Shown in pieces: positions 2,690 through 60,624 of a stretch of 64,000 bases of DNA. Where the stretch lies: the NCBI GenBank assembly GCA_964641025.1, contig CAZXJP010000005.1, positions 21,628-85,627 of the forward strand, written 5' to 3'. Under the pieces are notes generated by a model. It saw nothing but the letters and a program-made list of their open reading frames with translations, did not search any database and was not told the origin of the DNA. This DNA comes from an uncultured Candidatus Saccharibacteria bacterium (GTDB lineage Bacteria; Patescibacteriota; Saccharimonadia; Saccharimonadales; Saccharimonadaceae). A program made the translations under genes and the position numbers. The stretch's first letter is position 1; every line of letters begins with the position of its first letter.

Positions 2690-4615
2690 ATGGGTGGTTC
2701 AAATGAGTTCATAAATAACGACAATGAGCTTGTTGACGCCGTGCGCTCTCTGGGCGCACTTTTTGGTATAGGAGGTGTCAACGTCGAAGTAAAGCCAGGC
2801 GAAGGCACCACATGCAATCTCACAAAAAAGGGACTAACAATTCAGGTTGATCCAGACCAAATTGCAAGAAGTGATTCAGGCGAGAAGAGCGACAAACAAA
2901 TATTATCAGAGGATGCGTTATATATCGCTGGTGAAGTAATTGGCTATGTACGTGACTTGATAGACGGTGGCATGCCGGAGGCAAAGAATGAAAAGGATAA
3001 ATTTTTCTGGATGACCGTACAAGACGCCGCGATCGATACGCGATTAAAAAGTATACCTCTCCTAGATAGTATTACGGAGGATGTTTATAAAACTCACAGA
3101 TTTCCCGAATCCCAGATGTCAGAGGCGCCCAAACACGTTCAATTCATGGAAGCGGTACTGTTAAAAAGTATAGTTCCAAATGGAGACTGGCGTTTTGATC
3201 AAGATATAGAACAACTGATTGAACAGCTACGGAATTATCACATTGCAGGCGAAACCGTAGATATTTTAGAGCACATGAATCATCGAGAGACCAGTATTAA
3301 GAATAGGATACGAATTGCAAATCAATTCTTACGCCCCGTCTATGACGCGCTGTATGACGAGGATGTGCAAAATGGCATGGCAGATGATAATTCCGAGTCA
3401 GAGGATGGAGATGGAGCTAGTGACAATGGGAGCAGAGACGGCCAAGAAGGTGATGGAGAGTCAGAGGGCGATGCATTTTCCGGTGGGTACAATCGCTATG
3501 AAGAAGCAATGCATGGATCTGCTAATAGGGATAAGTCCAAAAAGCAACAAAAGGGCGGTACATATAATGGTATGTCGATGCATGAAATTATGGCACTCAT
3601 GCAACAGATGGGAGCTGGGGGATATTTTCCGGATTTCGAGATGGACGAAGAGGATGAGTATGAAGACGATGATATGGACGATGGTAATGATGAAAAAGAG
3701 TATAACGATTTTGACGACGACAATAGTGGCCAATCAAACTTGGCCGGTAGATTACAACAAGAATTAAAGTTAAACAAAGCGGATACCCTTGCATATCTGG
3801 AGGTTTTGACAAAGTACAGAGGCGTAATATCGCAAACAGCTGACGTGCTGTTAAAATTATCAAACCTTGCCAATACCACCAACGCCCCTACCTATAGATC
3901 GATAGCTGATGAACATGGACGCAGGCTCCATCCTTCTAGATTAATGCAGTTCGACATACAGCGGGAAACAGGTCAACAACAATCTTTTTGGCAACCAATG
4001 GAGAACAAAAACACACGCTCCGAGTATTTATTTGGAGGGTTAGATATAACACTGTGCGTCGATGTCTCTCAATCAATGTCGGGGATTAAGGGAATGCAAG
4101 CAGGCGCCTTGGCTATAATAATGCTAGAAGCGAAAGAGTTAGCCGCTAGGCGTGCCGAGATGTACCAACAGCAGTTTGACTCGAATGACGTTCGAACACG
4201 CGTTATTGCGTTTGGTAGCGGTGCGAAAGAGTTATCGCCTATGCAGAACTTTGCATCGTCAAGGGATAAAGGCAGGATATTTCATAACTTGGTGCATCCA
4301 AGTTCCTCCGCGACGAACATATCAAAATCATTAGAGATGGTTCGTGACAAAGCCGTAAATAACACAGAACGGGATCAGATAGTATTTTTGATAACGGACG
4401 CGCAATTCTCGGACAAAGTGAAGGCAAAAGAAATTGTAAAATCCATGCCTGATAACGTACTTTTGGCACAATTCGAAATTAATCCAAGCGCAAATCAAAA
4501 TGTAAAACCCGATGGAATTACTCCGTATACGCGGCTTATAAAAAGTCCTGAACAAACACCGTCTGCCTGTCTAAGATTAATCTATGACTACGTTGACGCG
4601 TACGATAATTATTAA
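2690..4615 (+). CDS. von Willebrand factor A (VWA) domain protein with long acidic linker
   Basis: C-terminal VWA with MIDAS-type DVSQSMSG (DxSxS) and a later FLITDAQF strand. Has a central D/E-rich low-complexity stretch. Divergent from the AAA+ gene across a 42-bp spacer. Confidence 0.7.
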   Translation: MGGSNEFINNDNELVDAVRSLGALFGIGGVNVEVKPGEGTTCNLTKKGLTIQVDPDQIARSDSGEKSDKQILSEDALYIAGEVIGYVRDLIDGGMPEAKNEKDKFFWMTVQDAAIDTRLKSIPLLDSITEDVYKTHRFPESQMSEAPKHVQFMEAVLLKSIVPNGDWRFDQDIEQLIEQLRNYHIAGETVDILEHMNHRETSIKNRIRIANQFLRPVYDALYDEDVQNGMADDNSESEDGDGASDNGSRDGQEGDGESEGDAFSGGYNRYEEAMHGSANRDKSKKQQKGGTYNGMSMHEIMALMQQMGAGGYFPDFEMDEEDEYEDDDMDDGNDEKEYNDFDDDNSGQSNLAGRLQQELKLNKADTLAYLEVLTKYRGVISQTADVLLKLSNLANTTNAPTYRSIADEHGRRLHPSRLMQFDIQRETGQQQSFWQPMENKNTRSEYLFGGLDITLCVDVSQSMSGIKGMQAGALAIIMLEAKELAARRAEMYQQQFDSNDVRTRVIAFGSGAKELSPMQNFASSRDKGRIFHNLVHPSSSATNISKSLEMVRDKAVNNTERDQIVFLITDAQFSDKVKAKEIVKSMPDNVLLAQFEINPSANQNVKPDGITPYTRLIKSPEQTPSACLRLIYDYVDAYDNY

Positions 4616-4665
4616 AATACCTTTACAGATGTCTGCAATCCGGGACCTGGGTTATAATAGTCCTA

Positions 4666-5733
4666 ATGTCTCAACACTTAACGCAATCTGATTGGGCTGT
4701 TTTGCTCGACCGTGCAATCAAAGAGTATTTTGAATACTCGGTCACGCAGGCGAAACAAATCGACCCGTCATATCAACGTCTATGGGAGATACTTCGGGAT
4801 CTGATCAATTCTGGTGGAAAGCGTCTTCGCCCGCATATGACATTGTATGCATACAGGGCATTCGGCGGTCAGGATATCCATAAACTTGTTCCTATAGCCG
4901 TTGCGCAGGAATTACTTCATTTTAGTCTACTAATCCACGACGATATTATAGACAGGGACTACATACGCTACGGCACTGACAATATAGCAGGAAGCTATCT
5001 AAAAGAATATGCGAAACATATCGATTCTGATGGCGACAGAGTTCATTTCGCGCACAGTGCGGCAATATTGGGCGGTGATCTAGTGCTTTCTGGGGCGCAT
5101 AGTTTGATAGCCTCTAGCGAATTGAGTGATAGCGAAAAGACGTCTGCTCAACGGCTACTTTCACGTGCGATTTTTGAGGTAGCAGGTGGCGAACAGCTAG
5201 ATACCGAATCAAGCTTTATGCCCTATCGTGATGGTAGCGCGTTAAATATAGCTAGATACAAAACGGCAGGATATTCATTCATAGCACCTCTTGTGACAGG
5301 GGCGACGATTGCTGGTGCGTCCGAGAAACAGATTAACCATTTGCGAGAGTTCGCTATAGCATTGGGCGTGGCATTTCAGCTAGTTGATGATTTACTGGGT
5401 GTATTCGGGGAAGAAGCTACAACCGGTAAATCCACGACGAGCGACATTACAGAGGGTAAAAGAACATTTATGATAGAAAAAGCCGTACAAGCAATGAACA
5501 GTGAGCAAAAGTCTCGCTTTGACGCTCTCTTTGGCAAAAAGGACGCATCGCCATTCGAAATTGATGAGATAAAACAATTGTTGATATCTACAGATGCGAA
5601 ACTAGCGACAGAAAAGGAAATAAACGCATATGTGATAACGGCTCGCCAGTTATTAGCGACCCTGGAATTTAATAAAGAAGACCAAGATACGTTCGATGCC
5701 CTGATTAAAAAAGTAACGGATCGGACACATTAG
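4666..5733 (+). CDS. crtE: polyprenyl (geranylgeranyl) diphosphate synthase
   Basis: First Asp-rich motif LIHDDIIDRD and second motif FQLVDDLLGVFGEE. First gene of the carotenoid cluster. Confidence 0.85.
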   Translation: MSQHLTQSDWAVLLDRAIKEYFEYSVTQAKQIDPSYQRLWEILRDLINSGGKRLRPHMTLYAYRAFGGQDIHKLVPIAVAQELLHFSLLIHDDIIDRDYIRYGTDNIAGSYLKEYAKHIDSDGDRVHFAHSAAILGGDLVLSGAHSLIASSELSDSEKTSAQRLLSRAIFEVAGGEQLDTESSFMPYRDGSALNIARYKTAGYSFIAPLVTGATIAGASEKQINHLREFAIALGVAFQLVDDLLGVFGEEATTGKSTTSDITEGKRTFMIEKAVQAMNSEQKSRFDALFGKKDASPFEIDEIKQLLISTDAKLATEKEINAYVITARQLLATLEFNKEDQDTFDALIKKVTDRTH

Positions 5734-6563
5734 TGGATCTGTATAACAAAGTTTCGTACGGTAACAGTCGCTCATTGGCCCTGAGCTACTCAACGTCCTT
5801 TGGCCTGAGTAGTAGATTATTCAGCAAGAGGATTCAGCCCCATATCTACGCGATATATGGATTAGTGCGTATTGCCGACGAGATTGTAGACACCTACAAA
5901 GGTCCAGACTCCAGTAAATTATTAGATGATTTAGAAACAAATACGTATGACGCAGTGAAATCCGGCTATAGCACCAACCCTATTGTCCATTCGTTTGCCT
6001 TGACCGCTCGTGAATATAAAATCGATGAATCTTTAATCGCTCCCTTTTTCACAAGTATGCGAATGGATCTGGACTCTCAAGACTATGACGAGCGGAATTA
6101 CAAAAAATACATCTATGGTTCGGCGGAAGTGGTAGGTTTGATGTGTCTAAAAGTTTTTTGTGAAGGCGACACGACTCGATACGACAAACTAAAGGAAGGT
6201 GCATCTGCGCTAGGGGCGGCTTATCAAAAGGTTAATTTCTTACGAGACATGTCATCTGACTACGTGGAGCTCGGCAGGCTTTATTTTCCTGGAGTAACTT
6301 TTGATGACTTTAATGAAAGCGCAAAAAGAACCATTATTGATGATATAGAAAACGACTTTTCCCTGGCCTACCCATCGCTTCGTCAGCTTCCACGTACGGC
6401 ACGAACAGCAACCATGTTGAGTTATGAATACTACAGTGAGTTGCTCAAAAAACTCAAACGTACACGAGCAGATGATATTAAAAAAAATCGAGTCAGGGTC
6501 TCCGACTACAAAAAAATCGTAATACTAATAAAAGTAGTCATACGGGAGAAGCTTCGAGGGTGA
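5733..6563 (+). CDS. crtB: phytoene synthase (squalene/phytoene synthase family)
   Basis: YGLVRIADEIVD and NFLRDMSSD Asp-rich motifs. GTG start overlaps the crtE stop (TAGTG). Confidence 0.85.
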   Translation: MDLYNKVSYGNSRSLALSYSTSFGLSSRLFSKRIQPHIYAIYGLVRIADEIVDTYKGPDSSKLLDDLETNTYDAVKSGYSTNPIVHSFALTAREYKIDESLIAPFFTSMRMDLDSQDYDERNYKKYIYGSAEVVGLMCLKVFCEGDTTRYDKLKEGASALGAAYQKVNFLRDMSSDYVELGRLYFPGVTFDDFNESAKRTIIDDIENDFSLAYPSLRQLPRTARTATMLSYEYYSELLKKLKRTRADDIKKNRVRVSDYKKIVILIKVVIREKLRG

Positions 6564-8092
6564 GCAAAAAGGTCATTATTATCGGGGCCGGTATCGGCGG
6601 TATCGCAACTGCGAATCTATTGGCCAAGGCTGGGTATGATGTTGAGGTTTACGAAAAGAATAACATGCCTGGCGGACGGGCTGGTGTATACGAGACTAAA
6701 GGTTTTAGGTTTGACACTGGGCCGTCATGGTATCTGATGCCAGAGGTTTTTTCTCATTACTTTTCATTACTAGAAAAAGACATCAACAAAGAGATTAAAC
6801 TAGCTAAACTAAATCCTGCGTATAAAGTTTTTTTTGAGACTAAGGAGCCTGTTACTATAACCGGAGACAGCTCTGTTGATGCGCAAACGTTTGATGCAAT
6901 CGAACCAGGCAGTGGTGTTAAATTGTTGGATTATGTCAGTAAGGGCGATGATATTTATCGTCTAGCCATGAAACATTTTTTGTATACGAATTTTAGTTCT
7001 ATGCGCGATTTTACAAAACTCGACGTCATGAAGCGTGGACATGTCATGACCCGACTAGCACTCATGCCGATAGACAAATATGTTAGACGATACGTTTCAG
7101 ATCTTCGCCTACGGCAAATTCTTGAATATCCGATGGTATTCCTCGGTTCGTCGCCCTACTCTGCCCCGGCGCTATATAGTTTGATGAGTGCGCTTGATTT
7201 TCGAGAGGGTGTGTACTATCCGCGAGGCGGTATATATACGGTTATCGAAAAAATTGTATCCGCGGGCAAAGAGCTAGGTGTCTCGTATCAATATAATAGA
7301 CCAGTGGAGCGTATAGATGTTTCCGATGGAGGAGCGGTATCGGGGATAGTGCTACAAAACGGAAAATCCGTGAAAGCGGATATTGTGATATCAAACGCAG
7401 ACCTGCACTATACGGAAACAAAAATGTTAGATAAAAATCATCGCTCCTACCCGTCGTCATATTGGAATAAACGAGAGGCGGGACCAAGTGCATTGTTGAT
7501 GTATCTAGGCGTAAAAGGAAAACTCCCACAGCTTGAACACCACAACTTATTTTTTGTTGATGACTGGCAAAAGAATTTTCATGACATATTTAAAGGCAAA
7601 AAAATACCCCACCCAGCATCTGTGTATGTATGCAAACCAAGCGCAACGGACGATTCGGTGGCACCCAGCGGAGACGAAAACGTGTTTGTCCTCGTTCCGC
7701 TTCCGGCAGGAGTTGCAATAGATTCTGAGGACATGGAAAAAGTTGCCGATAGATATTTGAAACAAATAGAAAGACACATGGGAATTCCTGATTTACGCAA
7801 ACGATTGAGTGTTAAGCGATTGTTCGGACCGAATGATTTTATTGCTAGCTATAACGCCTGGCAGGGTACGGCTTTGGGACCGTCGCACATACTCAAACAA
7901 TCTGCTTTCTTTAGGACTCCAAACAAAAGTAAAAAAGTAAAAAACCTATACTACGTAGGGGGATCGACAACCCCAGGCATTGGTTTACCAATGTGTCTCA
8001 TTGGAGCTGAACTCATATACAAGCGTCTGGCTGGTGAAAAAAGAGGTGGACCCGTACCGAAGATCCGCAAGATTGCAAGGAGTGACAAGTAA
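6560..8092 (+). CDS. crtI: phytoene desaturase (FAD-dependent, CrtI family)
   Basis: N-terminal dinucleotide fold KKVIIIGAGIGGIATANLLAKAGYDVEVYEKNNMPGGRAG. 510 aa. Start overlaps the crtB stop (GTGA). Confidence 0.9.
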   Translation: MSKKVIIIGAGIGGIATANLLAKAGYDVEVYEKNNMPGGRAGVYETKGFRFDTGPSWYLMPEVFSHYFSLLEKDINKEIKLAKLNPAYKVFFETKEPVTITGDSSVDAQTFDAIEPGSGVKLLDYVSKGDDIYRLAMKHFLYTNFSSMRDFTKLDVMKRGHVMTRLALMPIDKYVRRYVSDLRLRQILEYPMVFLGSSPYSAPALYSLMSALDFREGVYYPRGGIYTVIEKIVSAGKELGVSYQYNRPVERIDVSDGGAVSGIVLQNGKSVKADIVISNADLHYTETKMLDKNHRSYPSSYWNKREAGPSALLMYLGVKGKLPQLEHHNLFFVDDWQKNFHDIFKGKKIPHPASVYVCKPSATDDSVAPSGDENVFVLVPLPAGVAIDSEDMEKVADRYLKQIERHMGIPDLRKRLSVKRLFGPNDFIASYNAWQGTALGPSHILKQSAFFRTPNKSKKVKNLYYVGGSTTPGIGLPMCLIGAELIYKRLAGEKRGGPVPKIRKIARSDK

Positions 8093-8406
8093 TGCAATGG
8101 CTCTACCTCGCGGGCTTATTGTTGTCGATAGCAGGCATGGCAACGCTGGACTGGCGTTATCGGCTGGCGTTTTGGCATGATCGTACCAGAACTTTACTAA
8201 CTATTACCGTAGGAGTCCTAGTGTTTGTCTTGTGGGACCTCATAGCTATCAAACAAGGAATTTTTATACACGGGGACAGCCGGTTTATGCTATCGTTCAC
8301 GTTAGCCCCAGAATTCCCAGTTGAAGAGATTTTCTTCCTGATACTATTGTGTTATTGCACGCTAGTTATTTATCGTGCAGGGGAACGAATATGGCCACGT
8401 ACATAG
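8092..8406 (+). CDS. crtYe: lycopene-cyclase-domain small subunit (C50 carotenoid cyclase CrtYe-like, or heterodimeric CrtYc-like)
   Basis: 104-aa three-TM protein with the PEFPVEEIFF motif typical of the lycopene cyclase domain. TAATG overlap with crtI. Confidence 0.65.
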   Translation: MQWLYLAGLLLSIAGMATLDWRYRLAFWHDRTRTLLTITVGVLVFVLWDLIAIKQGIFIHGDSRFMLSFTLAPEFPVEEIFFLILLCYCTLVIYRAGERIWPRT

Positions 8407-8681
8407 TATTAAACGTCATGGTGTTGCTTGCCATCTGGGTGCTGCTCGCTCAGTGGCTTCATAAACCGTCTCGCGCCTGGGTGTTTACTCTATCCGTGAT
8501 TGTCACACTAACCTTGGTGTTTGATAATCTGTTGATTTGGATGGATATGTTTAGTTATGCAAGTGACAAGATTCTGGGATATTACATTTTATTTGCTCCT
8601 GTCGAAGACTTTTTCTATGCGCTCGTTGCCGTAATCCTCATCCCTGCACTATGGTATAAGTTTGGAGGTTCCCGTGCTTGA
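8391..8681 (+). CDS. crtYf: lycopene-cyclase-domain small subunit (CrtYf-like / CrtYd-like)
   Basis: ~96-aa membrane protein with FAPVEDFFY motif. ATG at 8391 (internal to the 8349 ORF) overlaps the previous gene by 16 nt. Confidence 0.6.
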   Translation: MATYIVLNVMVLLAIWVLLAQWLHKPSRAWVFTLSVIVTLTLVFDNLLIWMDMFSYASDKILGYYILFAPVEDFFYALVAVILIPALWYKFGGSRA

Positions 8682-9528
8682 AAAAATACAAAAACTACTG
8701 ATTATTTCTCGCCCGGTGTCATGGCCCAATACCGCGTACCCATTTGCCGCGGCGTTCTTGGTCACGGGCGGAACGCTAGGGCCGACATTCTGGCTGGCAA
8801 CCATCTTTTTCTTGATTCCATATAATCTGTTGATGTATGGAATCAACGACGTATTTGATTATGAATCTGACATACGTAACCCACGTAAAGGTGGACTGGA
8901 GGGTGCCAAAGAGCAAAAGTCTTTGCATCCACTTATTATGTGGTCGGCCTTGTTGACGACTATCCCATTTGTTGTATACCTCTTGTTCGTTGGTTCACTT
9001 CTTGCCAATCTTACGCTACTAGTCGTGATTTTCTTTGTTGTTGCCTACTCTATTGCCGGACTCAGGTTCAAGGAGATTCCCGTGCTCGATTCCGTCACTA
9101 GTAGCATGCACTTCGTGGGCCCCATGGTATATGCTATGGTGCTCACGGGATTTTCAGTGGCCTACATGCCCTTCATTGTCGCGTTCTTTATGTGGGGTCT
9201 AGCCAGCCATGCATTTGGAGCGGTGCAAGACATTATACCCGATCGTGAAGGCAAGCTATCGTCTGTCGCTACTGCGCTAGGAGCACGCTTGACCGTGCGC
9301 GGTGCATTTTTATTCTACATCGCATCAAGCATATTATTGGCTACGCAAGGTCTGGGGCCGGCGATTGTTGGTATAGTCGGATTAATTTACGCTGTAAACA
9401 TCGCGCCATATCTGGGCATTACGGATAAAAAATCAGGCCTCGCAAACCGTGCATGGCGACGCTTCATATGGCTGAATATGTTTACGGGATTCGTTGTGAC
9501 AATGGTTTTGATTGCGGCCTTTATTTAG
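8674..9528 (+). CDS. crtEb: UbiA-family prenyltransferase, lycopene elongase-like
   Basis: NDVFDYESD and VQDIIPDREG Asp-rich motifs in a multi-TM protein. GTG 8674 is preceded by GGAGG (alternative TTG start at 8662). Position is the same as crtEb in C50 clusters. Confidence 0.7.
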   Translation: MLEKIQKLLIISRPVSWPNTAYPFAAAFLVTGGTLGPTFWLATIFFLIPYNLLMYGINDVFDYESDIRNPRKGGLEGAKEQKSLHPLIMWSALLTTIPFVVYLLFVGSLLANLTLLVVIFFVVAYSIAGLRFKEIPVLDSVTSSMHFVGPMVYAMVLTGFSVAYMPFIVAFFMWGLASHAFGAVQDIIPDREGKLSSVATALGARLTVRGAFLFYIASSILLATQGLGPAIVGIVGLIYAVNIAPYLGITDKKSGLANRAWRRFIWLNMFTGFVVTMVLIAAFI

Positions 9529-10066: not shown

Positions 10067-11041
10067 ATGAAAAAACAACTCAAAAAACCTACGCGTAAAC
10101 ATACTGTTCGGGGTGCGCACAGCAAGCTAAAAACAAGGCTACCAAAAAGTCCATTTATTGCGGGGGTAGCTATTGTCGTGGCTCTTTTGGTTCTCGGTGG
10201 ATCATCCTATAGCGTTTATCACTATTTTCAGGCCAGCGCAGATGACAATAAGGTATTGGTGACGCAGAAGCAGGGCGAGAAGAAAGAAGCCTTGCCGAAT
10301 ATTGATAACAAGCTGGCAGATATTAACAAAGATGACGTAAAGAAAGCTTCGGAAACCAAGAAAGATTACAGTGACCCACGCGCGCCTACTCTTACTACTG
10401 GCGCGGGATGTATAACGTGCGACAATAATCCAAAACACTCTATTATTACGAATTTCAAATCAACAAAAATGCGTGCCGGTACGACCATTGGACCGTTTAG
10501 CGCCCGTACTTCAACTGGAGTCAAGGTTGACTGGTCTACGCCAGGGTCTCCAAAGGATTTTTCGCCGTATAGCTATATAAAGGACACGTCATTTTTTAAC
10601 CGCTCCTCGATTACATTCTATATACGCACCGAAACAAATGTAAAACCCGGAACCTATCAAATGCAGATGACGGCAGTCGATACAAAGAATTACACGCGTG
10701 CAAGGCATTTTGCTAATATTACAGTGACTGAGAAAGGGTATTTTACTATTACGCCAGGTCCAGCAACAATAGACTATAACAGGGGCTATTACTTGAACTT
10801 ACCGCTAAAGTTGAATCGCTTTAATGGACATGACGAGTCGGTTAGCATGAGCGCGGAGATGCAGTGTCCGGGTAGTTCAAAGAAATATTTTGATCATAGT
10901 TGGGACCATCACCCCTCACCGCGTCTAGTTGGACCAATCAATAATTTCGGCGTGCCCAATACATGCACCATAACCATGGACGCGGTTGATGCGAGTCACC
11001 AAACAGTTTACAAAAAAACTGTAACTTTTTCTGTTAACTAG
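10067..11041 (+). CDS. membrane-anchored / secreted hypothetical protein
   Basis: Basic N-terminus followed by a single hydrophobic helix (FIAGVAIVVALLVLGG). The remainder is Ser/Thr/Asn-rich and beta-like. Confidence 0.5.
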   Translation: MKKQLKKPTRKHTVRGAHSKLKTRLPKSPFIAGVAIVVALLVLGGSSYSVYHYFQASADDNKVLVTQKQGEKKEALPNIDNKLADINKDDVKKASETKKDYSDPRAPTLTTGAGCITCDNNPKHSIITNFKSTKMRAGTTIGPFSARTSTGVKVDWSTPGSPKDFSPYSYIKDTSFFNRSSITFYIRTETNVKPGTYQMQMTAVDTKNYTRARHFANITVTEKGYFTITPGPATIDYNRGYYLNLPLKLNRFNGHDESVSMSAEMQCPGSSKKYFDHSWDHHPSPRLVGPINNFGVPNTCTITMDAVDASHQTVYKKTVTFSVN

Positions 11042-14406: not shown

Positions 14407-15621
14407 ATGAAAATATTGATGTTGGGCTGGGAACTTCCGCCGCACAACAGCGGAGGCCTAGGCGTTGCTTGTTATCATATGTCCAAAGCACTGTCTGTTG
14501 CGGGTGCTTCGATTGATTTTGTCTTGCCCTATCGAGCAGAGCATCCGGGTGTTGATTTCATGAAGATACATCATGCAACTGAACTAAAACCCGATCTGAA
14601 AGCACACATGGGCAGTTATGATAGCAACTGGGTGTTTGAGCGATATCTAGAAAATGCCACGAATCCAAATTCTTTGCGAGGAATACAGCGTCGATATGTT
14701 GATTTTATTGAGGATATCGCCCCGGAACTACGACCAGACGTCATACACGCCCATGACTGGCTGACGATGGAGGCTGGCGTGCGAGCAAAGGAGCTAACGG
14801 GGGCCCCTCTGGTCGTTCATGTGCACGCTACGGAATTCGATCGTTCCGGCGAGCATTATGGCAACCCTATTGTTCATGAAATTGAACAGCAAGCCCTACT
14901 GATGGCAGATAGGATTATCGCCGTTAGTCAGCTGACAAAGAACATCATCGTGAGAGAATACGGTATCCCAGAAGAATTAGTAGAAGTAGTCCATAATGCC
15001 GTGAACATGGATGATTTTGGGCCGTATGAATACGACACTCGGAGCTACAGGTATCTAGAAGCGTTAAAGTACGAGGGGTATACCGTAGTGTCGGTTTTGA
15101 CAAGGTTCACTATTCAAAAAGGACTAACGCACTTCATGAAAGCCGCCGCCAAAGCTTGCGAGAAATATGATCGCTTTGTATTCTTGTTTGCTGGTGATGG
15201 CGAGCTAAGGGATGAGCTTATACAACTCTCGGCCGAATACGGTATATCGGACAAAGTTTATTTCACTGGATTCGTGCGTGGCAGACAATGGCGAGACGTC
15301 TATTCTATATCAGATATTTTTGTAATGAGCTCTGTGAGCGAGCCTTTCGGCTTGACGGCCCTGGAAGCGGCTCATCATGGAACCGCCTTAATCCTTAGTA
15401 AACAATCTGGTGTCGGCGAAGTACTTAACAGTAGTCTAAAGTACGATTTTTGGGACACCGACACGCTAGCGGATCAAATGCTGGGTATAGCTCTCTCTCC
15501 TGCTCTGGCTACTGAACTACGCAATAATGTGCGCAATGAATATGCTCGACTTTCCTGGGATGACATAGCAAGAAATTGCATGGGTATATATCACCGAACA
15601 AGAAAGGTGGCGCTGGTATGA
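14407..15621 (+). CDS. glycosyltransferase, glycogen/alpha-glucan synthase-like (GT4/GT5)
   Basis: N-terminal MLGWELPPHNSGGLGVACYHM (KxGGL-like) and a C-terminal GT-B region SEPFGLTALEAAHHG. Confidence 0.75.
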   Translation: MKILMLGWELPPHNSGGLGVACYHMSKALSVAGASIDFVLPYRAEHPGVDFMKIHHATELKPDLKAHMGSYDSNWVFERYLENATNPNSLRGIQRRYVDFIEDIAPELRPDVIHAHDWLTMEAGVRAKELTGAPLVVHVHATEFDRSGEHYGNPIVHEIEQQALLMADRIIAVSQLTKNIIVREYGIPEELVEVVHNAVNMDDFGPYEYDTRSYRYLEALKYEGYTVVSVLTRFTIQKGLTHFMKAAAKACEKYDRFVFLFAGDGELRDELIQLSAEYGISDKVYFTGFVRGRQWRDVYSISDIFVMSSVSEPFGLTALEAAHHGTALILSKQSGVGEVLNSSLKYDFWDTDTLADQMLGIALSPALATELRNNVRNEYARLSWDDIARNCMGIYHRTRKVALV

Positions 15622-16874
15622 AAAAGGGCGTCGTAGTATACCTACACGTTCATCAACCGTACCGCGTGCGGCCGTATTCTATATTCGATATAGGTGAATC
15701 CCATAACTATTTCGATGTATTTGACGACACCGATGTTAATGACGAAAAAATACTATTAAAGGTCGCGGATAAGTCATATAGGCCAATGATTTCACTATTG
15801 CAAACCTTGCTTGATAAACACGAAGATTTTCACGTTTCGTTAAGTATTAGTGGCGACTTTATCGATCAGGCCGAACGTTGGGCGCCTGATCTGATTGATG
15901 GTTTTCGGCGATTATTTGACACTGGGCGCGTAGAGTTTGTAGCGGAAACGTACCACCATAGTTTGGCGTTCTTTTTCAGCCGTAGCGAATTCGAAGCCCA
16001 GGTAGACATGCAGCGTGAAAAAGTAAAAGAACTGTTTGGAGTAACGCCCAGGGCTTTTCGTAATACCGAACTAGCCTACAATGACGAAGTGGCGAAGTGG
16101 GCGGATGATGCAGGATACAAAGTCATACTAGCCGAAGGATGGGACAAGGTGCTCGGATGGAAGAGCCCTAACTATCTGTATAGTCCAACCAACACTGAAA
16201 ACATTAAGTTATTATTAAAAAATTATAAACTTAGCGATGATATGGCATTTCGCTTCGGCGATACGAACTGGTCTGAATTTCCACTAACTAGTGATAAATA
16301 TATCGAATGGGTTCGTGCTTCTATCGGTGATGGTCAGATAGCGAATTTATTTATGGACTTCGAAACGTTTGGCGAACATCAGTGGGAAGACAAGGGTATA
16401 TTTAGCTTTTTTGAACAGTTTGTTGGTGATTGGATAAGTCATGGAAATGCTTTCTATACTGTTTCAGGAGCTGCCGAAAAGCTCGATTCAGCAGGTGAAA
16501 TCAGTATGCCAGACACCGTTACCTGGGCCGATACGGAACGTGACCTAACAGCGTGGTTGGGTAACAGTATGCAGCAAGAAGCGGCACGACATCTCTATGC
16601 ACTAGAAAAAGACGTCATGCGAAGCAACGACACGGAACTAATCAGAGATTGGCGCTATTTACAGACATCCGATCATTTGTATTACATGTGCACTAAATGG
16701 ATGAATGATGGTGATATCCATGCCTACTTTAGTCCATACGACTCACCATACAATGCGTTTCTGTACTATATGAACGCTATTCGTGATGTTCGCCTGAGGG
16801 TTATGCAGCATCATCGTTTGGGCGGAGTACATGGCCATGAAAATACAGCGAGAGAAGGAGTTCATGGGATATAG
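15618..16874 (+). CDS. glycoside hydrolase family 57 protein (alpha-amylase / branching-enzyme type)
   Basis: Motifs VVVYLHVHQPYR and FMDFETFGEH, typical of GH57. ATGA overlap with the upstream gene. Confidence 0.8.
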   Translation: MKKGVVVYLHVHQPYRVRPYSIFDIGESHNYFDVFDDTDVNDEKILLKVADKSYRPMISLLQTLLDKHEDFHVSLSISGDFIDQAERWAPDLIDGFRRLFDTGRVEFVAETYHHSLAFFFSRSEFEAQVDMQREKVKELFGVTPRAFRNTELAYNDEVAKWADDAGYKVILAEGWDKVLGWKSPNYLYSPTNTENIKLLLKNYKLSDDMAFRFGDTNWSEFPLTSDKYIEWVRASIGDGQIANLFMDFETFGEHQWEDKGIFSFFEQFVGDWISHGNAFYTVSGAAEKLDSAGEISMPDTVTWADTERDLTAWLGNSMQQEAARHLYALEKDVMRSNDTELIRDWRYLQTSDHLYYMCTKWMNDGDIHAYFSPYDSPYNAFLYYMNAIRDVRLRVMQHHRLGGVHGHENTAREGVHGI

Positions 16875-16908
16875 GGGGGTTAGATAATGATTCTGGGTGG
16901 GGTTGCGC

Positions 16909-18867
16909 ATGCTTAGGCCTATCGTTTTATCCAATGGAGAAATGCATGTTGGTTTGAATAACTTTGGGCTGGTGCATGATTTTTATTATCCCTATGTTGG
17001 ACTAACCAACCATGCGGAAGGTGACCATACTCGACATCGTATTGGAGTTTGGTGTGACGGCAAGATTAGCTGGCTCGATAACGAAGGTGAATGGGAGTTT
17101 ACTTTTCGCTACCCTATCCGCGCGCTGGTTGGTCATACGATAGCAAAAAACGCATCCATGAACATATTATTAGAGATTGATAGCGTCGTGGATTCGCACG
17201 TCAGTGCTTTTATTCGTAACATTCACGTGGTTAACATGGCCGATTATGATCGAGAGATTCGGTTATTTACTCATCAGGCTTTCGTGATAGATGATTCACG
17301 TAGCAAGACAGACACCGCGCAATATTTACCAGATAGTAACGCGATAGTCCATTATCGTGGCAGGCGCGCATTTATTGTATCTGGCGTGTACGACGATCAA
17401 CCTTTTGACCAACACAGTATCGGGTTGTTTGGTATCGAAGGCCACGAAAGCGTATATCGAGACGCCGAGGATGGAGAGCTGGACGGCGGAGATGTAGAGC
17501 ATGGACGAGTAGACTCGGTATTAAGATTCAAGATGAATGTGGGAGCTCATAGCTCCGAAAGGGTCCATTATTGGATAACTGCTGGTTCATCGATAAGAGA
17601 GGCATTATACGTTGATAAAATCATACGCGACGATGGGGTCCATAAGCGAATACATGGAACCGTTGAATGGTGGCATAAATGGCTTCAGCCTGCCGTAAAA
17701 TCAGCAGAAAAGATTGACCCCAGGTATCACGATACGTTTTTGCGCAGCGTAATGATATTAAAATCCCACATAGACAAAAGGGGCGCGGTTATTGCTAGTA
17801 CGGATAGCTCGATGTTGAATTATGGTCGTGACGCGTATGCCTATTGCTGGCCCAGAGACGCGGCATTCGTACTGTGGCCAATGCTACGAATGGGATATAC
17901 GGATGAGGTTCGTCGATATCTAGAGTTTTGTCGACGAGTACTACACCCCAGTGGCTATTTAATGCATAAATACAGGGCCGATGGAGGACTGGGGGCCAGC
18001 TGGCATTCATATACGCATAGGGGCGGATATAATGCACCGCCAGTGCAAGAGGATGAAACGGCAATAACCATATTCTTGCTAAATGAAGCATATAAAACCA
18101 CTGGTGACATACACCTATTAAATGATTTCTACGATAGCATGGTCAAGCCTATGGCTAATTGGATGGCAGAGTGGATTGATGAAACGACGGGATTGCCCAA
18201 ACCAAGTTACGACTTGTGGGAAGAGCACTTTTTGATTAGCACATATACGGTCGCGTGTACATATGCTGGTATGAACGCGGCCGCGGAACTAGCAGAGCAA
18301 AAAAATGATAATGAAAGCGCGGTTGCGTGGCGCGCGGTTGCCGATGACATAAAACATGCTGCCCAAAAATACCTATATAATCACGATCGAAAATCATTTT
18401 ACAAAGGTCTGAATGTTATCGATGGTACTATCGAGTACGATTCAACGATTGATACGAGTAGTGTATTTGGGGTGCACATATTCGGCTTATTTGATGTGAA
18501 CTCAGAAGAGTTAAAAAATTCCATACATTCCATGAGGGAGGTTTTTGGTGGGTATGATGTAGAGGCGTTTCCAAGGTATGAAAACGATAATTATCGCCGA
18601 GCGAACCCAAATACACAGGGTAACTGGTGGTTCATACCTACTCTATGGATGGCGCAGTACTGCCTAGAAATCGGTGACGATAAAACCGGCTTTTCAATCC
18701 TAGAATGGGTAAAAAATGCGAGCATGAGAACCGGGGTACTATCAGAGCAAATAAACCCTGATGACCACTCAATGATAGCACCAGCCCCACTGGGCTGGAG
18801 TCATGCCGAGTATGTATCAACACTACTAGATACCATGGGAAAATCTAGCGATGAAGATGTTGAATAA
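16909..18867 (+). CDS. glycoside hydrolase family 15 protein (glucoamylase / glucodextranase-like)
   Basis: Motifs AYCWPRDAAF and YDLWEE. ATG 16909 gives the N-terminus MLRPIVLSNG (alternative GTG start at 16897). Confidence 0.8.
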   Translation: MLRPIVLSNGEMHVGLNNFGLVHDFYYPYVGLTNHAEGDHTRHRIGVWCDGKISWLDNEGEWEFTFRYPIRALVGHTIAKNASMNILLEIDSVVDSHVSAFIRNIHVVNMADYDREIRLFTHQAFVIDDSRSKTDTAQYLPDSNAIVHYRGRRAFIVSGVYDDQPFDQHSIGLFGIEGHESVYRDAEDGELDGGDVEHGRVDSVLRFKMNVGAHSSERVHYWITAGSSIREALYVDKIIRDDGVHKRIHGTVEWWHKWLQPAVKSAEKIDPRYHDTFLRSVMILKSHIDKRGAVIASTDSSMLNYGRDAYAYCWPRDAAFVLWPMLRMGYTDEVRRYLEFCRRVLHPSGYLMHKYRADGGLGASWHSYTHRGGYNAPPVQEDETAITIFLLNEAYKTTGDIHLLNDFYDSMVKPMANWMAEWIDETTGLPKPSYDLWEEHFLISTYTVACTYAGMNAAAELAEQKNDNESAVAWRAVADDIKHAAQKYLYNHDRKSFYKGLNVIDGTIEYDSTIDTSSVFGVHIFGLFDVNSEELKNSIHSMREVFGGYDVEAFPRYENDNYRRANPNTQGNWWFIPTLWMAQYCLEIGDDKTGFSILEWVKNASMRTGVLSEQINPDDHSMIAPAPLGWSHAEYVSTLLDTMGKSSDEDVE

Positions 18868-19789: not shown

Positions 19790-20821
19790 TTATATTCCGT
19801 TTTGAGCAATTGCCTCGCGCGCAGGCTGTACGACAAAGGAATCAAAGTCCTCCGCGCCTTTACGATGCCTAGACAGAGCTGACGCAATTCTTTCGCGTGC
19901 TTGCTCGCCTTCGGCGTCAAGGTTCGGCACATTCCACACATCCCAATGCTTCTCTAGATTTGGCACGAACACTTCCTCGTTTTGAATCTTTAGATCGTAT
20001 ATCCCTGCTATGGCGATCCGAACTGCATGTTTAATAAAGTTGGGGATAGATTCCGCTCCGGGCATTTGAAAGCCCTCGATCACCCTAGCTGTCGCTTTCA
20101 TGGTGTGGTTTGGCGCAATTTTGAAGGATTCTTTGATAAGGTCTCTATATACAACCCAATGGAGTACCTCGTCTTTCTCGACGCGAGAAAACAGCTCTTG
20201 AGCAACCCTGTCACCTTCAAGTAGAGTATGATCTCCCGTGTTACCGTGCGCCTTCACTGTCGCTAGTTCTTGCATAGCTACGTATACTCCACCTTCGATT
20301 GGCGACAAACTCTGTAATTGTCCATTATTATGTGGATTTGGCAAATCATTTACAAAGCCATGTTGTACTTGTGCCATACGGCTTTCTTCGATTTCAATCG
20401 GGTTAAACGTTCTAGATACTGCTAGGAGGTTGTGTATTGCCCTTCCATGCCTGTCTTCCTCCGCGGTCCATCTATTTACCCAGTTTCTCCAGGCGCCGTC
20501 ATAGCCAAAAAGATTAGCGATCTCTCGGTGGTACGATGGTAGATTATCCTCGGTCATCGCTGCTATAAACAAGGCAGAACGCACGCCCTTGCTGAATTTG
20601 AACGTTTCTTGACCCTCTTCCCAATCTACGGCCATTGCATTATATTCTTCTTTGTCTTTGTCGCTTCTTGCCCAAGGATATTGATGATCCCGACCCCTGC
20701 TCCAGGGAACATAAAAATCAGGCACCCAAAATTTGGATGCTCGTTCATGTCGATTCAATAGCTCGCCCATTTTTGGTTCCAGCTCGCCCATCAACTGCAG
20801 TTCCGTCATCTCTTTTGTCAT
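19790..20821 (-). CDS. acyl-ACP desaturase (soluble di-iron, DesA / stearoyl-ACP desaturase family)
   Basis: Motifs MTEDNLPSYH, WTAEEDRHG and EKDEVLHWVVY (di-iron ligand helices). Confidence 0.85.
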   Translation of the reverse strand: MTKEMTELQLMGELEPKMGELLNRHERASKFWVPDFYVPWSRGRDHQYPWARSDKDKEEYNAMAVDWEEGQETFKFSKGVRSALFIAAMTEDNLPSYHREIANLFGYDGAWRNWVNRWTAEEDRHGRAIHNLLAVSRTFNPIEIEESRMAQVQHGFVNDLPNPHNNGQLQSLSPIEGGVYVAMQELATVKAHGNTGDHTLLEGDRVAQELFSRVEKDEVLHWVVYRDLIKESFKIAPNHTMKATARVIEGFQMPGAESIPNFIKHAVRIAIAGIYDLKIQNEEVFVPNLEKHWDVWNVPNLDAEGEQARERIASALSRHRKGAEDFDSFVVQPAREAIAQNGI

Positions 20822-36821: not shown

Positions 36822-37295
36822 CTATTTGTCTGCTTTTTTCTTTGTTGAAGGCTTGATAGGCGTGTCGACTTTTTCGAAAGAACCGCCGGCTTTTTTAACA
36901 GCCTCTTGCACGGATTTACTAGCAGCCTGTACTCGCAGGGTAACTTTTTCTGTTAACTCGCCACGTGCGATAACCTTTACCGTATGGTAAGGTGTCGAAA
37001 CTAGTCCGGCCTCGAACAATGACATGTTGTCAGCCGTTTTACCTTTAAAGGCGTTGAGATGATCTAGGTATACGACTTGCGCAGGTGTGCGAAGCGATTT
37101 AAAGCCACGGGCCTTTGGGATCGCTTGTACTAGAGCTCGCTGTCCTCCCTGGAACATTGCACCTAGTTTTTTACCCGTTCGAGCACCTTGACCTTTGGTA
37201 CCACGACCGGCAGTCTTACCGCCACCGGCAGAGATTCCGCGACCGACGCGTTTCTTGCTTCGGTTAGCCGATACCTGTAGTTCGTTGTACTTCAT
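36822..37295 (-). CDS. rplO: 50S ribosomal protein L15
   Basis: KKRVGRGISAGGGKTAGRGTKGQ. Confidence 0.95.
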   Translation of the reverse strand: MKYNELQVSANRSKKRVGRGISAGGGKTAGRGTKGQGARTGKKLGAMFQGGQRALVQAIPKARGFKSLRTPAQVVYLDHLNAFKGKTADNMSLFEAGLVSTPYHTVKVIARGELTEKVTLRVQAASKSVQEAVKKAGGSFEKVDTPIKPSTKKKADK

Positions 37296-37864
37296 TACTT
37301 AGCCTCCTTCTTTGCAGGCTTTTTTGCGGGCGCATTTAGCCACTGATCCTTGGGCACTAGGCTCTTCAAGGCGTCAATAGTTGCATATGCGATGTTTACC
37401 TTGTTCGTAGATCCTAGAGACTTCGAAAGCATGTTATGTATGCCCGTAACACCGATGACCTGTCGTACGACACCACCGGCGATGACTCCCGTACCAGGAG
37501 CGGCAGGCTTGATAAGTACCTGTGCGCCAGATACTTTAACTTCCGCGTCGTGCGGAATAGTCTCGTTGACGATAGGGACTACTATCAAATTCTTTTTAGC
37601 TACGTCAGTTGCTTTTGACACGGCGGTCTGCACGTCTTGGCCTTTTGATACGCCTACACCAACTTTACCTTTGTTGTTACCGACGACTACCAGTGCTTTA
37701 AATCGGAAACGACGGCCACCTTTTACGACACGTGCCACACGGTCGACATTGATAACAATTTCCTCAAATTCTTTTGGTTCTTGGGGTACGTCACGGCGAT
37801 CACGTCGTGGTGGTCGCGCTGGGCGTGCATCTCGTGGTTTTGTAGCTGCTTGTTGTTCAGCCAT
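37295..37864 (-). CDS. rpsE: 30S ribosomal protein S5 (N-terminal extension)
   Basis: VINVDRVARVVKGGRRFRFKALVVVGN. Confidence 0.95.
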   Translation of the reverse strand: MAEQQAATKPRDARPARPPRRDRRDVPQEPKEFEEIVINVDRVARVVKGGRRFRFKALVVVGNNKGKVGVGVSKGQDVQTAVSKATDVAKKNLIVVPIVNETIPHDAEVKVSGAQVLIKPAAPGTGVIAGGVVRQVIGVTGIHNMLSKSLGSTNKVNIAYATIDALKSLVPKDQWLNAPAKKPAKKEAK

Positions 37865-60099: not shown

Positions 60100-60624
60100 A
60101 TGCGGAACTATATAAACAAGTTCGATCGTAAGGTGGGTTCGTCTATAAAAAGTATCCCGAAATGGGCTTATCCAATCATGCAGTTTTTTACGCTCGTTGG
60201 ACAGCCGCCTTTCACGATAGGAGTAGCGGCGGCGATACTGGGTTACGGATATGCTCTTGATAAGGACTATTACTTAATCGCCGGTTTCATAGCGATTACT
60301 ACCATTACCGTTAGTAGTGTTCTAAAGATTGTGCTTCGCCGTTCCCGTCCTGTTAACCAGTACGTGAAAAATATGTTTTTCAAAACATTTAGTTTTCCTA
60401 GCGGTCATGCCGCAGGATCACTTGTCAGCTATGGTCTAGCGGCTATCGTTATTTCCTACAAATGGCCTGAACTGGCCATTGCCACACTGTTAGTTGCAAT
60501 TATCGTGATATTTTTTGTTGGTTTGTCGCGCGTCTATTTGGGGGCCCACTACGCGAGCGACGTTATAGGTGGCTGGATCGTTGGACTGATAGGTGTAATC
60601 GCAATTATTTTGTTGGATAAATAG
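60100..60624 (+). CDS. PAP2-family lipid phosphatase
   Basis: Motifs KIVLRRSRP, PSGHA and SRVYLGAHYASDV. Confidence 0.8.
   Translation: MRNYINKFDRKVGSSIKSIPKWAYPIMQFFTLVGQPPFTIGVAAAILGYGYALDKDYYLIAGFIAITTITVSSVLKIVLRRSRPVNQYVKNMFFKTFSFPSGHAAGSLVSYGLAAIVISYKWPELAIATLLVAIIVIFFVGLSRVYLGAHYASDVIGGWIVGLIGVIAIILLDK

Follow-up and report, generated by a model that had tools for sequence, protein, structure and literature searches.

A native six-gene operon for the probable synthesis of a cyclic C50 carotenoid in a Saccharimonadales genome

The steps leading to cyclic C50 carotenoids have been assigned in Corynebacterium glutamicum by deletion and complementation: CrtE produces geranylgeranyl diphosphate (GGPP), CrtB phytoene and CrtI lycopene, CrtEb adds C5 units from dimethylallyl diphosphate (DMAPP) to yield flavuxanthin, and CrtYe/CrtYf perform the cyclisation (PMC3598387). 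The decaprenoxanthin cluster of this organism is arranged as crtE-cg0722-crtB-crtI-crtYe-crtYf-crtEb (PMC3598387; Krubasik et al. 2001), and C50 pathways have been reconstructed in Escherichia coli (PMC6393565). Within the Patescibacteria, the only earlier report of C50-carotenoid genes that we found is a Lake Baikal study, which interpreted matches to lyeJ, crtD and cruF as a bacterioruberin pathway (PMC9948471). The large Saccharibacteria genome surveys that we consulted do not mention carotenoids, and the Saccharibacteria rhodopsin paper of Jaffe et al. discusses crt genes for Actinobacteria only. Here we describe a six-gene carotenoid cluster at positions 4666-9528 of a 64-kb stretch of DNA (the window) from an uncultured Candidatus Saccharibacteria bacterium, and we consider it likely that the cluster is a functional operon, native to a Saccharimonadales genome, that directs the synthesis of a cyclic C50 carotenoid. 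Saccharibacteria, which live as ultra-small epibionts, are reported to be without synthesis of lipids, amino acids and nucleotides.

Operon layout and enzyme assignments

The cluster consists of six co-directional genes, each overlapping the next, preceded by a promoter-like hexamer:

4653..4658, + strand: TATAAT hexamer resembling a -10 box, 8 nucleotides (nt) 5' of the crtE ATG (sequence reading and cross-locus comparison)
4666..5733, + strand: crtE, short-chain (presumed geranylgeranyl) diphosphate synthase, 355 amino acids (aa) (PF00348, motifs, first gene of the cluster)
5733..6563, + strand: crtB, predicted phytoene synthase, 276 aa, GTG start (PF00494, motifs, 1-nt overlap)
6560..8092, + strand: crtI, predicted phytoene desaturase, 510 aa, GTG start (TIGR02734, FAD motif)
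8092..8406, + strand: predicted crtYe-type C50 cyclase subunit, 104 aa (TIGR03462, identity to CrtYe/CrtYg/LbtA)
8391..8681, + strand: predicted crtYf-type C50 cyclase subunit, 96 aa, ATG at 8391 (TIGR03462, identity to CrtYf/CrtYh/LbtB)
8674..9528, + strand: crtEb, predicted CrtEb-type lycopene elongase of the UbiA superfamily, 284 aa, GTG at 8674 (NF009608, identity to CrtEb/CrtE2/LbtC)

Specifically, the crtE stop and the crtB GTG share TAGTG at 5731-5735, the crtB stop and the crtI GTG share GTGA at 6560-6563, and the crtI stop and the crtYe ATG share TAATG at 8090-8094, while crtYe and crtYf overlap by 16 nt (8391-8406) and crtYf and crtEb by 8 nt (8674-8681). The six genes are predicted to be translationally coupled through these overlaps. 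The automatic list of open reading frames (ORFs) begins crtYf at GTG 8349 and crtEb at TTG 8662; the 96-aa and 284-aa forms used here are the gene calls of public assemblies, in which identical or near-identical proteins occur, and a GGAGG lies 6 nt 5' of the crtEb GTG. Every coordinate and junction given by the initial annotation of this DNA was reproduced. Its family calls are borne out for all six genes by domain matches (PF00348, PF00494, TIGR02734, TIGR03462 twice and PF01040), and the motifs that it listed are all present and conserved, within HDDIID, DDLLGVFG, FPVEE, APVED, NDVFDYESD and VQDIIPD. The six-gene arrangement is far beyond chance, because the same genes, order and overlaps recur in dozens of independent assemblies.

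In 11 of 14 Saccharibacteria loci, a TAnWWT hexamer, mostly an exact TATAAT, begins 12-16 nt 5' of the crtE start codon; apart from this hexamer, the sequence upstream of crtE is not conserved. This conserved -10 box is likely the promoter of a leaderless or short-leader operon transcript. A generic two-hexamer promoter scan did not report the box at 4653-4658, its site counts being no higher than in shuffled sequence, and a terminator scan detected none 3' of crtEb.

The operon ends with a UbiA-superfamily protein (PF01040, 82 bits). It scores 400 bits on the CrtEb-type model NF009608 (cutoff 217) and falls under the cutoff of the sister models, with 152 bits on NF010119 and 121 bits on the LyeJ-type model NF009516 (cutoff 205). 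For comparison, actinobacterial enzymes in the crtEb position reach 433-447 bits on NF009608, and a haloarchaeal LyeJ-type enzyme reaches 398 bits on NF009516; the NCBIfam models separate predicted CrtEb-type from predicted LyeJ-type enzymes cleanly. The reference enzymes were the ORFs of the reconstructed C. glutamicum, C. efficiens, Micrococcus luteus and Dietzia sp. CQ4 systems (PMC6393565 supplement). Among them, the window protein is closest to M. luteus CrtE2 (52% identity), followed by C. glutamicum CrtEb (48% over 283 aa, E 5e-97), C. efficiens CrtEb (48%) and the LbtC part of Dietzia LbtBC (47%). By comparison, its identity to the LyeJ-type prenyltransferase of a haloarchaeal crtB-crtI-prenyltransferase-cruF cluster is 30%; this reference was drawn from a plasmid collection search that returned one Arthrobacter and five haloarchaeal matches. 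The motif NDVFDYESD (residues 58-66) is kept in 18 of 22 Saccharibacteria copies and VQDIIPD (184-190) in 17 of 22, and both are kept in the actinobacterial copies. JGI labels members of the family "lycopene elongase/hydratase (flavuxanthin-forming)", and a PDB sequence search with the elongase returned no match. Exact-sequence look-ups of its 288-aa and 284-aa forms matched no contig, and gene context was taken from close relatives. MenA, UbiA and CtaB models are absent from its NCBIfam matches at E<0.01. Taken together, the identities to CrtEb, CrtE2 and LbtC and a position in a clade sister to the actinobacterial elongases, rather than with MenA, UbiA or CtaB, identify the protein as a predicted CrtEb-type lycopene elongase, in line with its original designation.

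The two small proteins upstream of the elongase both exceed the NCBIfam cutoff of the lycopene-cyclase domain model TIGR03462 (cutoff 39.4), the crtYe product with 57.4 bits and the crtYf product with 47.1 bits. The two correspond to different subunits of the characterised C50 cyclases. The crtYe product shares 43% identity with C. glutamicum CrtYe, 39% with M. luteus CrtYg and 33% with Dietzia LbtA; the crtYf product shares 49% with C. glutamicum CrtYf, 45% with M. luteus CrtYh and 32% with the LbtB domain of Dietzia LbtBC; and there were no cross-matches between Ye-type and Yf-type subunits in this comparison. Their FPVEE and APVED motifs fall in PxE(E/D) columns that are conserved in all Saccharibacteria and actinobacterial copies, and hydrophobic segments were found in the crtYe product and three in the crtYf product. 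In a tree of both subunits together, those of the window fall into one clade with the characterised C50 cyclases (87% bootstrap). The small proteins, which carry the lycopene-cyclase domain that had been ascribed to them, are thus predicted to be the two subunits of a heterodimeric C50 cyclase. Additionally, fusions of Yf to Eb occur in P0121, a close relative of the window gene (56% identity), and in the Paenarthrobacter protein P0123, and these fusions on the Saccharibacteria and actinobacterial sides tie the cyclase to the elongase independently. Internal bootstraps of the Ye+Yf tree are mostly below 50, and identities to the epsilon-, gamma- and beta-ring references are 0.38, 0.35 and 0.28, respectively. 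Of the match to decaprenoxanthin-type clusters proposed by the initial annotation, the C50 gene content and order stand, and decaprenoxanthin itself, with its epsilon rings, does not follow from the data.

The three upstream enzymes would supply lycopene. CrtE matches PF00348 with 170 bits, and its best NCBIfam matches are actinobacterial-type farnesyl diphosphate (FPP)/GGPP synthases, all under the equivalog cutoffs. Its first and second aspartate-rich motifs (FARM and SARM), HDDIID and DDLLGVFG, are kept in the Saccharibacteria and actinobacterial cluster orthologues, and crtE opens the cluster in both groups. CrtB matches PF00494 (SQS_PSY) with 138 bits (cutoff 26) and conserves the Asp-rich motifs ADEIVD and FLRDxxxD; its scores on the CrtB, HpnD and HpnC equivalogs are far under their cutoffs, and its assignment as a putative phytoene synthase draws on its place between crtE and crtI and on orthology with the actinobacterial clusters. 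CrtI scores 537 bits on the crtI-family model TIGR02734 (cutoff 238), carries the N-terminal FAD motif GAGIGG at residues 9-14, is under the cutoff of the CrtID equivalog NF058655 (545 bits versus 640) and scores 259 bits on a CrtD model.

Genomic setting, distribution and ancestry

The window also contains a ribosomal-protein operon, EF-Tu, EF-G, SecY and four transfer RNAs (tRNAs), and no 16S rRNA gene was found within its 64 kb. In the ribosomal-protein operon, uS5 (37295-37864, - strand) directly adjoins uL15 (36822-37295, - strand) without uL30 between them; the loss of uL30 is a hallmark of the whole candidate phyla radiation (CPR). The 90%-identity cluster of the window uS3 is named Ca. 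Saccharimonadales, and close relatives of the CrtEb protein are named Saccharibacteria or Saccharimonadales. With these relatives and the missing uL30, the Saccharibacteria/CPR character first noticed for the rest of the window is upheld. All window proteins that were looked up, carotenoid and housekeeping alike, lie on one NCBI contig of 87,233 bp.

In composition, the cluster is typical of its surroundings, as the initial annotation had judged by eye. Its G+C content (GC) of 0.43-0.46 equals that of the flanks, compared with 0.46-0.75 for actinobacterial loci, and its GC at third codon positions (GC3) is typical of the window. Its tetranucleotide distance from the window signature (0.0117) falls within the values for windows of the same size, which average 0.0126 +/- 0.0021 and of which 35 of 60 deviate more; actinobacterial clusters are 0.029-0.080 away from this signature. 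A 452-kb ENA contig (L001) and a second NCBI assembly carry the same operon with identical gene sizes and overlaps, both being syntenic downstream and different upstream, and the operon occurs again in a closed 1.13-Mb genome (L003, CP060232.1) with entirely different flanks. Taking the closest orthologous cluster (86-94% amino-acid identity) as the reference for synonymous divergence (dS), the ratio of nonsynonymous to synonymous divergence (dN/dS) is 0.069 for crtE, 0.092 for crtB, 0.051 for crtI, 0.054 for crtYe, 0.096 for crtYf and 0.101 for crtEb, and the cluster dS of 0.47-0.87 is similar to the 0.65-0.99 of flanking genes. Catalytic motifs are conserved in all six genes. The operon is native and under strong purifying selection, and it is probably functional. 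Because native composition, linkage in independent assemblies and a closed genome, and flank-like dS coincide, a chimera or recent graft is excluded, and with it the mis-join from an actinobacterial contig against which the initial annotation had cautioned.

The operon is a widespread trait of Saccharimonadales and no peculiarity of the window genome. Proteins with 65-91% identity to the elongase fall into more than 120 distinct 90%-identity clusters and are encoded on contigs that reach 1.1 Mb; wherever these clusters bear a name it is Saccharibacteria, Saccharimonadales or Patescibacteria. A scan of GTDB species genomes gave, among the best 80 loci, 20 of Saccharibacteria/Patescibacteria type (54-72% identity) and 60 of Actinomycetota, mostly Micrococcales (51-56% identity), counts that are not prevalence figures; among the same loci, the order E-B-I-Ye-Yf-Eb holds in every one with enough flank.

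Trees were built by neighbour-joining (NJ), with a haloarchaeal outgroup in the concatenation of CrtB, CrtI and CrtEb (1,066 columns). The split between Saccharibacteria and Actinobacteria receives 100% bootstrap for CrtE, CrtB and CrtI and 97% for CrtEb. In the CrtI+CrtEb tree, Saccharibacteria and Micrococcales are each monophyletic, with 94% and 100% support, respectively, and their sister relationship is supported at 100%; L090, a deep Patescibacteria lineage that carries the same operon on a 640-kb contig, joins the Saccharibacteria clade at 100% in the CrtB+CrtI+CrtEb tree. In the elongase tree, the characterised enzymes of Corynebacterium, Micrococcus and Dietzia all belong to the actinobacterial clade (64%), and the Saccharibacteria (79%) are sister to it and not nested within it. 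The large single-gene elongase NJ tree has weak deep support, and the concatenations and the characterised-reference tree are preferred. Identity within Saccharibacteria has a median of 40-59%, a divergence as deep as that within the sampled Actinobacteria, and the best identity of the window elongase to any actinobacterial CrtEb is 57%. The next outgroups are uncultured lineages and, where named, again Saccharimonadales. A high-GC clade (P0147/P0186) was considered as Corynebacteriales and rejected, the clade being uncultured.

Actinomycetota is the known host phylum of Saccharibacteria. The trees indicate that the relationship of the operon with this host phylum is real and old, and they make one ancient transfer between Saccharimonadales and Actinomycetota likely, followed in all probability by vertical maintenance as an old trait of many Saccharimonadales. 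The initial annotation had proposed a host-to-epibiont transfer that was not recent. Its age is supported by the depth of the Saccharibacteria clade, and so is the old link with the host phylum; its direction is not, because the Saccharibacteria clade is sister to the actinobacterial clade in the NJ trees rather than nested in it, and because Saccharimonadales stand among the outgroups. Transfer from epibiont to host is possible, since in the rooted trees some of the lineages that branch next to the pair are named Saccharimonadales and none is a cultured actinobacterium. A broader and rather unlikely reading would make Saccharibacteria an old and diverse reservoir of C50 carotenoids with at least two cluster types, from which the actinobacterial cluster may derive, with pigment made entirely from isopentenyl diphosphate (IPP) and DMAPP of the host.

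Several related loci depart from the arrangement in the window. A second cluster type (L092:6903-11207 and L093:4556-10702, named or inferred Saccharimonadales), which branches outside the pair of Saccharibacteria and Actinobacteria, combines Ye and Yf with a CrtID-type desaturase (651 bits in L092, above the NF058655 cutoff of 640), a CrtEb-type enzyme that scores 285 bits on NF009608 and a further, divergent UbiA-like protein (264 aa), with an HpnB/CruG-like family 2 glycosyltransferase (GT2) nearby and no adjacent crtE or crtB. C-terminal fusions of the elongase to a family-2 glycosyltransferase with CruG/HpnB-like matches occur in P0127, P0133, P0134 (~670 aa) and P0130, the last being a partial sequence of a named Saccharimonadales, and suggest that carotenoid elongation and glycosylation may be combined in one protein in some lineages. 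In L091:5835-9963, the lineage of which (GC 0.53) is the immediate outgroup of the pair, the cluster is rearranged: crtE and crtI are encoded on the minus strand and Ye-Yf-Eb on the plus strand, with no crtB nearby, and it adjoins the chemotaxis genes CheA, CheC/X, CheD and CheY. Three records that carry Saccharibacteria-clade sequences are probably mislabelled: the contig L012 (SEAL01000015.1) of a "Chloroflexi bacterium" metagenome-assembled genome (MAG), the protein P0459, which is also labelled "Polaromonas sp.", and the closed genome CP060232.1, which is named "Candidatus Nomurabacteria bacterium" and has its operon inside the Saccharibacteria clade.

Around the operon, the region immediately 5' of crtE encodes a MoxR-like AAA_5 ATPase (1202-2647, - strand) and a VWA protein of 641 aa (2690-4615, + strand) that contains a long, acidic segment of low complexity. 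In L001, the closest relative, a HisKA kinase takes their place, which makes the upstream boundary of the operon a rearrangement point. Just 3' of the operon, 10067-11041 (+ strand) encodes a protein of 324 aa that is anchored in the membrane at its N terminus and matches neither Pfam nor NCBIfam models; it is absent from the syntenic position in L001. Further downstream, genes for a GT4/GT5 starch-synthase-like glycosyltransferase, a GH57 protein and a GH15 glucoamylase-like protein stand in a row at 14407-18867 (+ strand); they apparently form an alpha-glucan (glycogen-like) module, conserved in L001 at 97-98% amino-acid identity. Lipid-remodelling genes are also present, namely a soluble desaturase of the acyl-ACP (acyl carrier protein) type (19790-20821, - strand; PF03405, 171 bits), conserved in the 452-kb syntenic contig, and a PAP2 phosphatase and a diacylglycerol-kinase-like protein (60100-60624 and 60625-61485, both + strand). 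Saccharibacteria are reported to be without fatty-acid synthesis.

Proposed pathway, precursor supply and alternative explanations

By orthology to the characterised enzymes, the operon, probably transcribed from the TATAAT box directly 5' of crtE, would specify the following route. CrtE would condense IPP with an allylic primer to GGPP, CrtB would join two GGPP to phytoene, and CrtI would desaturate phytoene to lycopene. The CrtEb-type UbiA enzyme would then extend lycopene at both ends by one DMAPP-derived C5 unit. The resulting acyclic C50 intermediate, similar to flavuxanthin, would be cyclised at both ends by a CrtYe/CrtYf membrane heterodimer to a diol of the decaprenoxanthin, sarcinaxanthin or C.p.450 type. 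The product likely serves in membrane stabilisation or fluidity control, in protection against light and oxidants, or in both; C50 carotenoids regulate membrane fluidity in Arthrobacter (cited in PMC9948471).

In line with the initial annotation, which had seen no genes for IPP/DMAPP supply, no isoprenoid-precursor gene is present among the scanned non-ribosomal genes of the window. Within 20-kb flanks, a type-1 Idi probe found a neighbour in 0 of ~21 Saccharibacteria loci versus 31 of 62 actinobacterial loci, and a MarR neighbour occurs in 0 of ~21 versus 15 of 62; in the nearest actinobacterial clusters, a NUDIX/Idi-type gene comes first and a MarR regulator is encoded divergently. The Saccharibacteria operon has no conserved seventh gene beside it, whether for CruF, a glycosyltransferase or another protein. 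With neither idi nor any other precursor gene alongside, the pathway presumably draws its IPP and DMAPP, or larger prenyl diphosphates, from genes located elsewhere in the genome or from the host. These bacteria need isoprenoid units in any case for cell-wall lipid carriers. A freshwater CPR survey found Saccharimonadia with only the C10-C20 isoprenoid steps (PMC9166423).

As to regulation and light-related genes, 7 of 21 Saccharibacteria loci, including L001:3424-5367, encode a sensor histidine kinase on one or the other side of the operon, at a distance of at most 5 kb. These kinases lack a LOV signature, none is found in the window, and a role in regulating the operon is possible but not implied. 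A bacteriorhodopsin probe gave no type-1 rhodopsin match in the window or the loci. A heliorhodopsin probe gave nothing in the window and matches in two loci: at L094:10450-11217 (- strand), 1.6 kb from a divergently arranged crtB/E/I and Ye-Yf-Eb cluster, and at ~19.7-20.4 kb of L023, a Crystal Geyser Saccharibacteria MAG, ~9 kb from a six-gene operon.

The end product is the point at which other pathways compete with the cyclic C50 carotenoid. If the small proteins were a lycopene cyclase like CrtYc/Yd, the operon would end in C40 beta- or epsilon-carotene, the UbiA protein would have another or a minor role, and the pigment could feed retinal-based photosystems. The TIGR03462 family does include C40 cyclases, the Luna-1 study annotates equivalent genes as crtY of a carotene-making pathway, and two loci have a heliorhodopsin gene in the neighbourhood of a related cluster. 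However, the subunits match those of characterised C50 cyclases one-to-one and group with them at 87%, Yf::Eb fusions and the 8-nt overlap link cyclase to elongase, and the elongase is itself under purifying selection (dN/dS 0.10). Nor was a type-1 rhodopsin or heliorhodopsin found in the window, and Jaffe et al. did not find blh in rhodopsin-bearing Saccharibacteria, a gene that was not searched for in the window. Moreover, loss of crtYeYf in C. glutamicum leaves flavuxanthin, which means that those cyclases act on the C50 intermediate (PMC3598387). A C40 product is thus, in our judgement, quite unlikely. Less probable by half is an acyclic C50 pathway of the bacterioruberin type, in which the UbiA protein would be a LyeJ-type elongase/hydratase working with CrtD and CruF. 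It could appeal to the lyeJ, crtD and cruF matches in Patescibacteria, including a Saccharibacteria MAG (PMC9948471), and to the scores of the window CrtI on the CrtD (259 bits) and CrtID (545 bits) models. Against this stand the 400 bits of the elongase on the CrtEb-type model versus 121 bits on the LyeJ-type model (cutoff 205), its 30% identity to the LyeJ-type enzyme versus 47-52% to CrtEb, CrtE2 and LbtC, the predicted translational coupling of two cyclase subunits to the elongase and the single desaturase in the cluster. No convincing CruF was found in the Saccharibacteria loci, the lone match (E=8e-4) being the crtYf ORF of L021. Because a CrtEb-type elongase occurs with cyclases and without CruF, the bacterioruberin interpretation fails, and is corrected, for this type of locus.

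Two further explanations concern whether the operon works and belongs where it is. It could be intact and metabolically stranded, silent or decaying for want of IPP and DMAPP, as the lack of idi or precursor genes among the scanned window genes and beside any Saccharibacteria cluster might suggest, together with the restriction of Saccharimonadia to C10-C20 isoprenoid steps in the freshwater survey (PMC9166423). Such a fate would be unlike the dN/dS of 0.05-0.10 in all six genes and the motifs kept across a deep clade, and the general need for isoprenoid units in cell-wall lipid carriers also speaks against it; we regard it as marginally less credible even than a bacterioruberin pathway. An assembly or binning artefact, or a very recent graft of actinobacterial DNA, would account for the closest cultured relatives being Actinomycetota, the host phylum, and mislabelled records do exist, such as the "Chloroflexi" MAG contig and the "Polaromonas" protein with Saccharibacteria-type copies. 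This explanation is effectively refuted by a cluster GC of 0.43-0.46 like that of the flanks, against 0.46-0.75 in actinobacterial loci, a tetranucleotide distance of 0.012 versus 0.029-0.080 for actinobacterial clusters, a top identity of 57% to any actinobacterial CrtEb, and linkage to Saccharibacteria genes in independent assemblies and a closed genome with dS equal to that of the flanks.

The cyclic C50 reading, which we still consider likely, has to accommodate several observations that weigh against it. CrtE and CrtB score under every NCBIfam equivalog cutoff, so that chain length and the phytoene product rest on context, and both small proteins are under the PF18916 gathering score of 27 (18 and 24.9 bits). 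The cyclase references were all C50 enzymes, a lycopene-cyclase side activity like that of C40 CrtYc/Yd is possible, and the cyclase tree does not separate the ring types. Deep nodes of the single-gene elongase tree reach only 63-79% NJ bootstrap. The precursor search covered the window and 20-kb flanks only, with Idi sought by the type-1 probe only. Finally, a purely photoprotective role sits poorly with carriers that come from dark habitats by sample name (groundwater, Crystal Geyser).

If the cyclic C50 reading is correct, many Saccharibacteria keep a pathway for a 50-carbon pigment despite their reported lack of C5 isoprenoid synthesis (PMC9166423). Carriers would then depend on a reliable source of IPP and DMAPP. 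This source may be the host, which would offer a handle on metabolite flow between host and epibiont. The C50 carotenoids may help cells that are unable to tailor their own fatty acids, and the pigment could aid the sorting or recognition of carriers. The gene family also links Saccharibacteria and Actinomycetota through a likely ancient transfer.

Comparison with known C50-carotenoid systems

The locus resembles the decaprenoxanthin cluster of C. glutamicum, in which the six enzyme genes are arranged alike and the ORFs for cyclase and elongase also overlap; identity is 48% in CrtEb, 43% in CrtYe and 49% in CrtYf. Unlike that cluster, it has no membrane-protein gene corresponding to cg0722 between crtE and crtB, and it lacks both the divergent MarR (CrtR) gene and the idi gene of many actinobacterial clusters. 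Its host is a CPR bacterium of ~1 Mb, and its sequences form a sister clade separate from those of C. glutamicum. The sarcinaxanthin genes crtE2-crtYg-crtYh of M. luteus, which lead to gamma rings, are similar in sequence (52% for CrtE2, 39% for CrtYg and 45% for CrtYh) and differ in that the elongase precedes the cyclase genes (PMC6393565), whereas the window has the order cyclase, cyclase, elongase. This latter order is shared with lbtA-lbtBC of Dietzia sp. CQ4, which lead to C.p.450 with beta rings, and the LbtBC fusion architecture recurs in P0121 (56% identity) and Paenarthrobacter P0123; yet the window genes are unfused, and their cyclase identities to the Dietzia proteins (33% and 32%) are the lowest of the three systems.

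More distant are the haloarchaeal bacterioruberin genes, for which the Halarchaeum plasmid pCBA1220-01 provides an example with a crtI-family desaturase, LyeJ and CruF. They have in common with the window an enzyme of the UbiA superfamily and C5 elongation of lycopene, but the prenyltransferase is only 30% identical and belongs to the NF009516 equivalog, and the plasmid encodes CruF without cyclase subunits where the window encodes cyclases without CruF. The genes from Lake Baikal Patescibacteria, among them those of a Saccharibacteria MAG, were reported as C50-carotenoid genes and were likewise linked to Actinobacteria (PMC9948471). By description, they are dispersed lyeJ, crtD and cruF genes detected with custom hidden Markov models (HMMs), in contrast to the complete crtEBI-YeYf-Eb operon of the window. 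Taken together, the enzymology of the operon is ordinary, indeed textbook for Actinobacteria; the lineage that carries it is unexpected and barely documented.

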